Assembly: GCF_055900595.2 (NCBI RefSeq) | Contig: NZ_PP320291.1 | Direction: 5' to 3' (one strand) | From: a plasmid | Length of the DNA: 6,137 bases | In this document: positions 1 through 3,000 of the stretch, piece by piece | How positions within the stretch are numbered: position 1 is the stretch's first letter | How the letters are laid out: each line of letters begins with the position of its first letter | Made by a program: the position numbers

Positions 1-3000
1 GACGCGAGAATCGCCGCTAGAAATAAAGCAGAAAACACCGAAGACTAGCTGAACGCACATTTCGACAATGATGTGGACTACATCGTTGATCATAACTTCA
101 CGGTGCGCTAGCTTCCATAGAAGCCAACTAATAACAAGGAGTTAGCATGTCTGATTCAGATTTCAAAAATAGCCCTGAGTATGATGACTGGATTGAATCT
201 GGTGGTAGAGATGAAGATTACAGTTACTACTATGAAAAATGGCATAGAAGAACTCAACGATAATTCCCGCCGATAAAAGGAAAGTGATAGCACTTTCCTT
301 TTTTTATAACTGACGGCCGTTTTGTTCCGTCAACGCTCAAAGCCTCGCGATCTGTCTCCACGCTCCCAGCCTCGATCCAGTGCCTTCAGGAGCCTGTGTT
401 CCCTTTCTTTTGCAACTTGCTGACTAGCCCGGTCAAGCCCTCCAGCTGCTTGCTCAAGCCGTCCACTTGCTGCGTTAAGCCGTTCACCTGCCTCGTCAAT
501 CGCTCTGCTGCTGCCCTGCTGATCTCGGCCTCTTGTTTGGTGCTCTCGTACATGCTCGCCAAGTTCGCGTAGCTTTCCTGCCATGCCTTGTGCTGCTGCT
601 CGTATGCGCTCTGCAAAGCCTCGAACGCGCAGAGCAATTCCCGCTCCAATCCCGTCATTTAGTACCCCTTCGGCACGATCCAATAGGTATCCTTCCCCCA
701 AACGGTTGGATTGGGGTCGGAGATCTGCACGCAAAGGTGCTCCAATTTCTTCCCGCACTGGGTCAGCTTTAGCTTGCCGCCCTTCTCTGCCAAGGCTTGG
801 AGAGTGGCTTGCCGCTCCGCTATCAATTCCCCCTGATACCAGAGGATCCCGCTCGTTGCGCTCAAGAACAGGACGATGCTGACCAGCATCCAGATCCACG
901 TTTTGAGCAACAGCCAGCCCATTTTCTGGCTGTGCTCGGCAATAGCGGCGCTCATTTTCTCCTCGCTTGATTTCAACGCCCCGGAGATAGCTTTCTCGTG
1001 CCTCGTGAATTCTTCGGTCAGACGCTTCTCGATAGCGTTGGCCTGCTGCTTCGAGCTCTGCTCGAAGTCCTTCGCCATGTCTAAAATCTTGCTCATACAG
1101 CACCCCCTTTAATCGGATGTTCCGCCCCCCGTCCGGGTCGGCAATGCTCAGGCTGTTTTTGGTTTCGCGTACCACGCTGAAACCCGCACCCTGCAAGGCT
1201 TTGCGCACATCATCGCGGCTCTGGATCTCCCCTGCTCCGGCCATGCGTAAAAGCCCGTCTGTAATGGCCTGAGCGGCCTCCTTGTGCCCCCTCGGCAAAT
1301 CCTTTGGCGTGATAACGGCCTGACGGTTTAACGGATCGTCCGGGTCGTGCAATTTCAGCTCCCCGTTTACCACGGTTCGCCACGCATCGAGGCGCGGATT
1401 GTCGGCCTTGTGGAAGTAGGGTTGCAGCCGCTTCCCGCTCTGCAATTCGATGTTCGGGACTACAAAATTCAGCTCCAGCCGCCCCTTGTCGCGGTGCTCT
1501 ACCCACAAAACAGCGTACTGGTTGCCCTCCAGTCCGGGCAGGAGCGCCTTTTCAAAGTCGCTCATCAGCTTGTCCTTGGTCGCCCTGGGTAAATCAGCCT
1601 CGGCAAACGACAGAACGCCAGAGGTGTATTTTTTGGCGTAGGGACTGGAATCAATCAGGGCTTCAATCACCGCAGGGTTGCCCCGGTCGAGCGTTGCGCC
1701 TTCCCGGTTCCCGTCACGGCCCAACAAGTAGCCAACAGGCCCGGAGCCCCGGCCTACCCCACGGTTATGGAATTTGATGATCATGGTGCAGTTCCTCCAG
1801 CTCGCGGCCTATAGCGGACAGCTCCGCTATGATGCGCAGCCGATCCAACGGCCCCCACTCCCCGGAATTAACGCGCCGGGCGATCTGGTTCAGGTTGTTG
1901 CCCATTCCGGCCAACTGCCGCAAGAGCGCCGGATCTACGGTAGGCGCCGGCGTTCGGCGCTGGGGTTGCGCAACACCGAGACATTGCTCCCGCATCCACT
2001 CCGCCAGTTGGGCCTTGGGGCAGAGCTCCCGCAGGCGCTCAAGCTCCGCATCTGAGACCCGGATCTTGATAGAGCGGAGGCGCTTTAACGGCTGGCCAGC
2101 CATGCAGAGGCCTCCGCTAAGGCGTCCTCATAGAGGCTATCGAGTAGCGTCTGGAGCGCCTTTTCATCCCGAAAATCGCAGTGCTCCGGCAAGGGGAAAA
2201 CACCCCCGCCGACCTCTTCGCCGTTCTCCAGCAAACGCAGATTCCAGCCCCCGCCAAGACCGAGAGTGCGGGGGGTGATTTCGTAGTCGTATTCCGTTGT
2301 TGTGGGTTCGTCACTTACCATAGCTAACACCTCATCGGTGGAAATTTTTCCATTGATATAATCTTCAAGTAGAATTTTGAATTCATCGGTTATGGCCTCC
2401 CCCTCTAGTTGGAAACTAGAAATAACGCCATTGACTGCCTTCCTTCTCGAATCTTTCTCTATCTGTGTTGTTGACATAGGGCCTCGTCCATTCTCCAGAG
2501 CCAAGAAGCCACCGCGCAGACCGTCCCGAAGGGGCGGATCGAGCGGGGGCCACAGGGGGTTTCGGGGGGCGTAGCACCCCTGAACAAGGCCACAGAGGCC
2601 CGAGACCGCGAAGCAGGTAGAGGGGCCTCTGTGTAGCCTTGCTTAGTACATTATTCAACCATGGGCGGGATACTGCAAGCCCTAGAGCAAGATCAAGGGA
2701 AAGAGCGGCTCCGTGGATAACTGCTGCCGCCCACACCCCCGAAAAAACAGGGGGGCGATGGACGGACAGGCGCAGTTGTCCACCTCGCCAAAGATCCGCG
2801 CTAAAAGGATTTTTTAAGGCTAAAAGACAAGAGCGCAGGAACCCCCTAAAGGGGGCTATTATCTGATAAGGCTTGTTTCGATCACGGACGATCACGCTTT
2901 AGGTAAACGCTCACCGTACTGGGGGAGATTTGAAGATCGTCCGCTATATCGCGGTTGGTGTACCCCTGAGCCTTAAGCCGCAGAACCTCCGGCAATAGAT

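Follow-up and report, generated by a model that had tools for sequence, protein, structure and literature searches.

The stretch analysed here (contig NZ_PP320291.1 of assembly GCF_055900595.2, 6,137 nucleotides (nt), hereafter the window) is a pOXA-232-type ColKP3 plasmid that carries on its minus strand, directly ahead of the mobilisation gene mobC, a small chimeric gene whose product joins a domain of the VbhA antitoxin family to a second, acidic domain. Positions 2000-2650 recur at an identity of at least 99% in 127 of the 136 matching PLSDB records, and the records at this level are mainly Klebsiella pneumoniae plasmids of 6,141 bp. The features that make up the gene are as follows, with the basis of each assignment in brackets.

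2085..2477, minus strand: chimeric coding sequence, 130 amino acids plus stop, WP_043907050.1 (RefSeq annotation of identical plasmids)
2307..2477, minus strand: VbhA-type domain, residues 1-57, three helices (Pfam, motif, predicted fold)
2088..2300, minus strand: 'GGGW' domain (name coined here), residues 60-130, corresponding to the ancestral small gene (stand-alone homologue, alignment, model)
2298..2478: AT-rich insertion of 181 bp, which supplies the start codon and some 60 initial codons from a vbhA gene (blastn, junction alignment, G+C)
2482..2484, minus strand: codon at which the ancestral small gene formerly started, AGG here (ATG in unfused relatives and in contig L029)
2085..2103, minus strand: 19 nt shared by the 3' end of the chimeric coding sequence and the 5' end of mobC (stop 2085-2087, mobC ATG 2103)

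A mechanical call of the open reading frame (ORF) extends over 2085..2504 on the minus strand from a TTG start, whereas RefSeq annotates 2085..2477 on the same strand from an ATG. Homology to stand-alone vbhA genes starts exactly 1 nt upstream of ATG 2477, which favours this codon, the native vbhA ATG, as the likely start on sequence grounds; TTG 2504 was rejected for the same reason. The 130-residue protein is very acidic (net charge -15), and its full-length AlphaFold model (predicted local distance difference test score, pLDDT, 83.7) contains an N-terminal three-helix unit and a C-terminal β-β-β-α unit that are joined by a low-confidence linker at residues 55-62. The features described initially for the locus are all present in the sequence. 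The G+C content is 0.39 in codons 1-55 versus 0.60 in the remaining codons, and at third codon positions it is 0.38 versus 0.67. The 19-nt overlap of the stop codon with the mobC start, as described initially, is confirmed in the sequence, and the mobC Shine-Dalgarno element GGAGG lies inside the upstream coding region, 7 nt ahead of the mobC ATG.

Two observations concern how this gene appears in databases. Frameshifted versions of the ORF occur in several K. pneumoniae assemblies (P0008, P0011, P0015, P0019, P0014, P0006 and P0007), and all of them break at or just past a C6 run (ACCCCCCGC) and a G5 run (GGCGGGGGCTGG); they are probably assembly or sequencing errors rather than pseudogenes. 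Separately, the AFDB entry A0A6M4DUU1 (Escherichia coli, 169 residues, named 'MobC') holds a segment that is 100% identical to the GGGW domain, and it probably reflects a gene model, either mis-called or fused across frames, that covers both the small gene and mobC.

The assignment of the N-terminal domain to the VbhA/FicA type, made initially from motifs, is upheld by profile, motif and predicted fold. Residues 11-52 match the Pfam family VbhA (PF18495; E=3.1e-7; model positions 1-42 of 47), and a scan of the ORF against NCBIfam returned no matching model. Numbered from ATG 2477, the segment SFQLEG (S21-F-Q-L-E25-G26) is the sole [ST]xxxE[GN] match within the ORF, and its L-E-G aligns with the L-E-G of other VbhA-like domains. 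When the predicted model of the domain, as opposed to a solved structure, was compared with the PDB using Foldseek, the top three matches were VbhA 3zc7_B, BiaA 5eu0_B and 5nh2_B, with probabilities of 0.99-1.0 and template-modelling (TM) scores, normalised to the target, of 0.67-0.69. Only 8 close relatives were recovered when the VbhA part was used by itself as the query of a word-indexed homologue search, and tblastn matches in PLSDB are confined essentially to the ColKP3 lineage. Relative to the stand-alone vbhA gene, the ratio of nonsynonymous to synonymous substitution rates (dN/dS) of the VbhA part is 0.35. The initial statement that the plasmid encodes no Fic/Doc core also holds: the motif HxFx[DE][GA]N[GK][RK] is absent from the six frames of the 6.1-kb plasmid. 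Nor is a Fic gene annotated in the 4.8 kb examined of the reference record, and none was seen at the loci examined beside the nearest stand-alone vbhA or other GGGW-VbhA genes.

The origin of the chimera is revealed by relatives that possess only one of its halves. Most homologues span only the C-terminal half, as stand-alone proteins of about 72 residues, the closest of which, P0010, is 96% identical, while a few 72-residue relatives span only the N-terminal half, among them P0016, which is 83% identical over the VbhA part. Metagenomic contigs L006-L009, which are 96-98% identical to the window, hold at the site of the chimera a 72-residue gene (product P0010) that is followed by mobC, with an equal 19-nt overlap, and by a relaxase gene (the first two genes occupy 34-252 and 234-572 in L006); the product of their mobC orthologue has a Pfam NikA-like/MobC match. 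In blastn alignments these contigs match window positions 2715-2479 and resume at 2297, and window positions 2298-2478 are therefore an insertion. The stand-alone vbhA gene of contigs L002-L005 matches window positions 2478-2297 at 89.6% identity, beginning 1 nt before its ATG. Across the junctions, the unfused gene reads GGACGATGCCCACGGAATAC and the window reads GGACGAGGCCCT[ATG...GACGAACCCACAACAAC]GGAATAC, with a short similarity of about 5 nt (CCCAC) at the right-hand junction. The alignments show that the chimera arose by illegitimate in-frame recombination into the first codons of a small gene. Of the two origins first proposed for the break in composition, fusion is supported by the G+C contrast and the insertion junctions, and the clean in-frame recombination at the junction rules out read-through. 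The polarity of the original description is reversed: what had been called an 'acidic C-terminal extension' is a resident, widely conserved gene that encodes the GC-rich C-terminal 70 residues, and the AT-rich VbhA portion is the 181-bp addition. The mobC overlap had been taken to imply co-expression with the relaxosome, but it is present in unfused relatives, predates the fusion and has nothing specific to VbhA.

Unfused and intermediate alleles can be placed around this event. The unfused gene is present in cultured isolates whose plasmids have the same replicon and MOB type as pOXA-232, namely Klebsiella oxytoca pRHB30-C02_4 (3,498 bp) and Enterobacter cloacae pCZ862; in the latter it overlaps mobC by 19 nt and is annotated as a hypothetical protein. 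A second fused allele is carried by contig L029, which has a backbone 96.2% identical to the window and other cargo, without a blaOXA gene on the contig, and a check of these cargo genes for a Fic toxin found none. L029 retains the old ATG of the small gene, out of frame (GATGCCCTATG), where the window has GAGGCCCTATG. With the ATG-to-AGG change, the window has lost a competing start and gained a Shine-Dalgarno-like GAGG, 4 nt ahead of ATG 2477, so that the clinical allele may have undergone a tuning of expression.

The nearest stand-alone vbhA genes (L002 1707-1925, and those of L003-L005) lie within AT-rich DNA. They are flanked on one side by a 292-residue ORF without a Pfam match, and on the other by a GNAT acetyltransferase gene (160 residues) and a 176-residue ORF, the product of which we take to resemble a REP-associated tyrosine transposase. 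Another junction is seen in a metagenomic scaffold (L030 366-755, encoding P0005), which shares 99.5% identity with the window from 2368 in the downstream direction and has unrelated sequence upstream, so that a different N-terminus is joined within the VbhA domain; either the AT-rich segment recombined a further time or the scaffold is an assembly chimera.

By sequence comparison, the C-terminal part of the protein is shown to be the ancestral resident gene of the ColKP3-type backbone, and it is 94-96% identical to the stand-alone 72-residue P0010, which is encoded at the equivalent position in sister plasmids. Its conserved core, Y.I.PR...LGGGW.LRLLE.GEEVGGGVFP...A..EA..WL, includes the near-invariant residues G16-G18, W19, E29, G31, G32, A60 and W67 (alignments A2 and A3). 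The predicted model of the domain (pLDDT 94.9) has strands at 4-10, 19-25 and 28-35 and a helix at 46-70, in a β-β-β-α arrangement. Compared with unfused relatives, the domain appears to be under purifying selection, with a dN/dS of about 0.2 that is based on very few substitutions (3 nonsynonymous, 3-5 synonymous). When 1.84 billion cluster representatives were searched with the family profile, 452 GGGW clusters reached E<=1e-3, and of these 229 reached E<=1e-10; among the best 150 of the 452 representatives, about half are stand-alone proteins of 60-90 residues, and the named hosts are alpha-, beta- and gamma-proteobacteria. For the C-terminal part, tblastn against PLSDB, the test initially suggested, found mainly the ColKP3 lineage, probably as a result of low-complexity masking of the G-rich core. 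The net charge of the domain is -9 in the window, and the median of 103 stand-alone members is -8; such strong acidity points towards protein binding or mimicry and away from contact with DNA. Models matching the GGGW domain of the ORF are absent from Pfam, NCBIfam, PHROG and PADLOC, although a PHROG scan of relatives gave weak matches of unknown function for two of them. A sequence-profile search of the PDB returned only a chance match (E=6), the family has no solved relative, and the AFDB relatives are nearly all named 'uncharacterized'. Judged from these searches, the small acidic GGGW proteins make up a family that has about 450 clusters, is unannotated and appears to reside on proteobacterial plasmids.

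Every GGGW locus that we examined looks plasmid-borne or otherwise mobile. The relaxases encoded next to GGGW genes belong to four Pfam families (Relaxase, MobA_MobL, Mob_Pre and TrwC), and some members are located away from any relaxase gene, beside SSB/ArdC, resolvase or toxin-antitoxin genes. Other neighbours include RepL-like and MobB-like genes, pairs of ParE and ribbon-helix-helix genes, ArdC-topoisomerase-SSB clusters, KlcB and resolvases, and at a BrnT/BrnA locus one member overlaps the brnA stop codon by 4 nt. The variety of these neighbourhoods favours a general plasmid function and disfavours a relaxosome role that is specific to one partner.

The domain has been fused to antitoxin modules repeatedly. 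The order GGGW-VbhA is found in P0084 (Pfam VbhA, E=1.3e-4) and, as detected with a purpose-built hidden Markov model, in P0077 and P0125, while P0095 from Xanthomonas fragariae has the order GGGW-spacer-VbhA (Pfam VbhA, E=1.6e-4). In P0124 (157 residues) GGGW precedes both VbhA (E=4e-8) and PaaA2 (E=1e-14), which brings two toxin-less antitoxin domains together; its gene was located at L031 786-1259 and L032 364-837, on contigs of 2.0-2.9 kb, the longer of which (L031) encodes a Mob_Pre relaxase but has no gene for a toxin. In a Pfam census that covered 67 longer GGGW proteins, the partners also included MazE-like and HI1420-type (HigA-type) antidotes, Rv2179c-like exonucleases and YfbR/HD hydrolases, with most partner regions left unmatched.

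Two further modules accompany GGGW in these longer proteins. A second unannotated motif, W-W-N-x-L/T-E-x-E-R-x-x-W ... A-D-A-W, stands before or after GGGW, or between its third strand and helix, in P0096, P0111, P0115, P0118, P0129, P0159, P0194, P0229, P0231, P0237 and P0249; the region has no Pfam match in P0095, P0111 and P0115, the proteins that fall within the Pfam-scanned alignment A3. P0167, P0177, P0188, P0205 and P0217 combine GGGW with a conserved C-terminal module, ...VLAERxRQ...W(T)xxHDDEH...LVKAGALIxAEIERxDR, for which the census reported no Pfam family and which presumably resembles all-alpha nucleotide pyrophosphohydrolases.

Our best explanation of the gene, which we put forward tentatively and at a little under an even chance, is that it encodes a chimeric orphan antitoxin that confers immunity to Fic toxins encoded elsewhere. 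The chimeric origin itself is shown by the alignments: the ancestral mob operon began with the 72-residue GGGW gene, the last 19 nt of which overlapped mobC, and in the lineage that contains pOXA-232 a 181-bp segment from the 5' end of vbhA recombined in frame to yield a protein of two domains with a flexible linker. This protein would be co-produced with the relaxosome proteins from the mob operon. The targets of its VbhA module would be class I Fic toxins, FicT/VbhT-like AMP-transferases acting on GyrB/ParE, that originate from the chromosome, a co-resident plasmid or a conjugative helper. By analogy with VbhA on VbhT, Glu25 would occupy the ATP γ-phosphate site in the catalytic centre of the Fic protein, which would protect a cell that carries the plasmid or has newly received it. 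GGGW would act as a separate module with its own, probably protein-binding, target, and the chimera would fit a recurrent 'multi-antidote' plasmid design. The recurrent fusion of GGGW to antitoxin modules lends the proposed anti-Fic immunity indirect support, and the ArdC, topoisomerase, SSB, KlcB and resolvase genes near GGGW members, which mark plasmid-establishment neighbourhoods, also speak for it. Orphan antitoxins are over-represented in plasmid leading regions, and a role against toxin-antitoxin systems has been proposed for them (PMC11541004). Recipients receive VbhT by injection together with a conjugating plasmid, and the four orphan antitoxins on pVbh have been proposed to be anti-addiction factors (PMC5675462).

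Several observations weigh against an immunity function, and some of them also speak for its main rival, namely that the gene is a neutral, hitch-hiking chimera in which a chance in-frame fragment from the 5' end of vbhA has no role and GGGW alone matters, the allele being common only through acquisition of blaOXA-181/232 and clonal spread of the plasmid. We regard this account as somewhat unlikely, taken as a whole. The 127 records are near-clonal, and conservation of the ORF among pOXA-232 plasmids therefore says little about selection. The L029 and window genes differ at 4 positions, and all are nonsynonymous and located in the VbhA part (codons 3, 27, 50 and 56), none falling in the C-terminal domain; these changes are compatible both with adaptation and with relaxed constraint. 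No Fic toxin was found as a target, and no Fic gene was present near any relative at the loci examined: the donor-type vbhA of L002-L005 lacks one inside contigs of 1.6-3.3 kb and thus looks to be an orphan within them as well, and across contigs of this size the VbhA clade was never seen adjoining a Fic gene. A scan of contigs from 100,044 species-representative genomes gave no close relative of the VbhA part. In P0084, P0077 and P0125 a Ser replaces the inhibitory Glu (L-S-G), and therefore not all VbhA-like modules attached to GGGW use the canonical mechanism. The chimeric gene is also positioned on the relaxase side of the presumed origin of transfer (oriT), outside the leading region. The recombination of L030/P0005 inside the same AT-rich segment and the published description of the gene as 'partial vbhA' are further points in favour of a neutral chimera. 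However, the insert has an intact start codon and a complete VbhA domain with its inhibitory motif kept, the fusion persists on two backbones that are about 4% apart, and the dN/dS of the VbhA part (0.35) is not near 1. The loss of the old ATG and the gain of GAGG fit selection for expression, and the independent fusions of GGGW and VbhA in the opposite order, together with GGGW-VbhA-PaaA2, make chance less likely.

A role as a mobilisation accessory or regulator, in which GGGW acts within the relaxosome or on the mob operon (through MobC, MobA or the coupling protein) and VbhA merely modifies it, seems to us quite improbable. It would account for the position of the gene at the head of the mob operon, with the same 19-nt overlap in fused and unfused plasmids, and for the many small plasmids on which GGGW members adjoin relaxase genes, in one case followed by a MobB-like gene. 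However, the neighbouring relaxases belong to four Pfam families, some members have no relaxase gene near them, the fusion partners are hydrolases or antitoxin modules rather than DNA-processing domains, the acidity of the 103 stand-alone members makes DNA binding unlikely, and no fold match to known relaxosome accessory proteins was obtained; a mobilisation-accessory role for the C-terminal domain is possible and fits these family-wide contexts less well. That the ORF is a chance open frame near oriT is extremely improbable. Such a frame would explain why it is frameshifted in several assemblies (P0008, P0011, P0015 and P0019), yet those frameshifts are confined to the C6 and G5 homopolymer runs or the positions just past them and probably reflect sequencing errors. 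Moreover, each half has independently conserved protein homologues, the fold predictions are confident, the Pfam match is significant and the C-terminal domain shows signs of purifying selection.

Beyond the immunity proposed for this one gene, GGGW may mark an unrecognised 'multi-antidote' class, in which a shared acidic module carries grafted VbhA, PaaA2, MazE-like or HigA-type domains or nucleotide hydrolases, although we consider this rather doubtful. If it were true, small mobilisable plasmids would use such proteins to survive host toxin defences, the addiction modules of rival plasmids and VbhT-like Fic effectors injected by helpers, and pOXA-232 would carry a built-in immunity factor that aids its establishment in new hosts.

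The chimera shares features with several known systems and is distinct from each. Its N-terminal 57 residues resemble the class I Fic antitoxins VbhA, FicA (YhfG) and BiaA in profile, in the (S/T)xxxE(G/N) motif and in the predicted three-helix fold. Unlike these proteins, which are single domains of about 55-70 residues, it has 130 residues in two domains, is fused to an unrelated domain and is encoded in the mob operon of a 6-kb mobilisable plasmid without an adjacent Fic toxin gene (HxFx(D/E)GNGRxxR). Because it has no adjacent Fic gene and is not a small single-domain protein, 'VbhA-domain fusion' is a more suitable name than 'VbhA antitoxin'. It is also not part of a type II toxin-antitoxin module, as there is no toxin gene and it is flanked by mobC on the downstream side and by the putative oriT and repA on the other. 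Like the orphan antitoxins of other plasmids, which are proposed to neutralise toxins of other replicons or of the host, it is a toxin-less module on a transmissible plasmid, but it is fused to a second domain and is located in a relaxase operon rather than in a leading-region island (PMC11541004, PMC5675462); no VbhA-type example was found in the literature searched on orphan antitoxins.

The C-terminal 70 residues resemble the stand-alone 72-residue GGGW proteins (RefSeq WP_160387704.1, 'hypothetical protein'), from which the window gene differs by the loss of the original start codon and the gain of a VbhA domain. The small sheet-plus-helix fold of the GGGW domain may resemble that of the HicB N-terminal domain and DUF2188; 'HicB family' is the label of one AFDB homologue (42% identical), and alignment with a DUF2188 protein gives TM scores of 0.78-0.80. 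The ribbon-helix-helix domains of MobC/NikA proteins (PF05713, PF21983) occur in the downstream gene, whereas the chimeric ORF is acidic and has only the VbhA match. Finally, the multi-domain 'polyvalent' proteins of conjugative elements, reportedly described by Iyer et al. in 2017, are said to string small modules together and to have probable counter-defence roles. The association of GGGW with VbhA, PaaA2, MazE-like, antidote, HD/YfbR-like and Rv2179c-like exonuclease domains recalls them, but GGGW proteins are small (100-400 residues) and their shared module is uncharacterised.

The gene had initially been considered undescribed, which holds for its function, as a literature search found no paper on the function of the chimeric gene or on the C-terminal family, and fails for its annotation, as RefSeq already names the product 'antitoxin VbhA family protein' and two papers list 'partial vbhA' on pOXA-232 in passing, with no analysis of it. 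What is new is the insertion event, the unannotated GGGW family and its recurrent fusion to antitoxins. Few carbapenemase vehicles have spread as widely as the pOXA-232/OXA-181 ColKP3 plasmids, and of the mere seven or so genes that these carry, one is known in the literature only under that partial name. If the chimera were to neutralise Fic-type toxins such as FicT and VbhT, which are poisons of gyrase and topoisomerase IV, it would provide a concrete case of an orphan antitoxin that aids the persistence or transfer of a mobilisable resistance plasmid. The recurrence of the fusions is a starting point for finding the function of the GGGW domain, and the clean, datable insertion, with its unfused and intermediate alleles, offers a natural experiment of unusual quality. 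Both the pattern of fusions and the three-domain relatives that contain VbhA and PaaA2 should be notable to specialists, and the hypothesis is testable on a clinically important plasmid.

The remaining features of the window complete the mob operon, in which mobC is the next gene after the chimeric ORF, and the replication and resistance genes.

1765..2103, minus strand: mobC, NikA-like/MobC ribbon-helix-helix relaxosome protein (RefSeq annotation)
330..1784, minus strand: mobA, relaxase, MbeA-like (NCBIfam relax_MbeA_E1, E=8.6e-141)
659-1096: mobB, nested within mobA in another frame (ORF list)
386-658: mobD, nested within mobA in another frame (NCBIfam MbeD, E=8.8e-22)
2882-3829, minus strand: repA (ORF list, annotation)
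4763-5560, minus strand: blaOXA-232 (ORF list, annotation)
2591..2633: perfect 11-nt inverted repeat, CACAGAGGCCC / GGGCCTCTGTG, with a 21-nt loop, upstream of the mob operon (repeat search)

The inverted repeat is a plausible candidate for the oriT hairpin, judging from its sequence and position. An Rfam scan of the window yielded no RNA family, and a promoter and terminator scan gave nothing informative for the minus-strand mob operon. The sole sigma-70-like match in 1700-3000, which is a match to consensus only, lies on the plus strand at 2347-2375 (TTTCCA, 17-nt spacer, TAGAAT), within the AT-rich insert, where it is antisense to the ORF and directed at the oriT/repA side. Compared with the 6,141-bp reference NZ_CP034762.1, the window contains two substitutions, at about 550 (mobA/mobD) and about 3650 (repA), and is one base short in three homopolymer runs, at about 2563, 2736 and 2842, in the non-coding stretch between the chimeric ORF and repA. 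None of the five differences is inside the ORF, and the three indels look like homopolymer sequencing errors.

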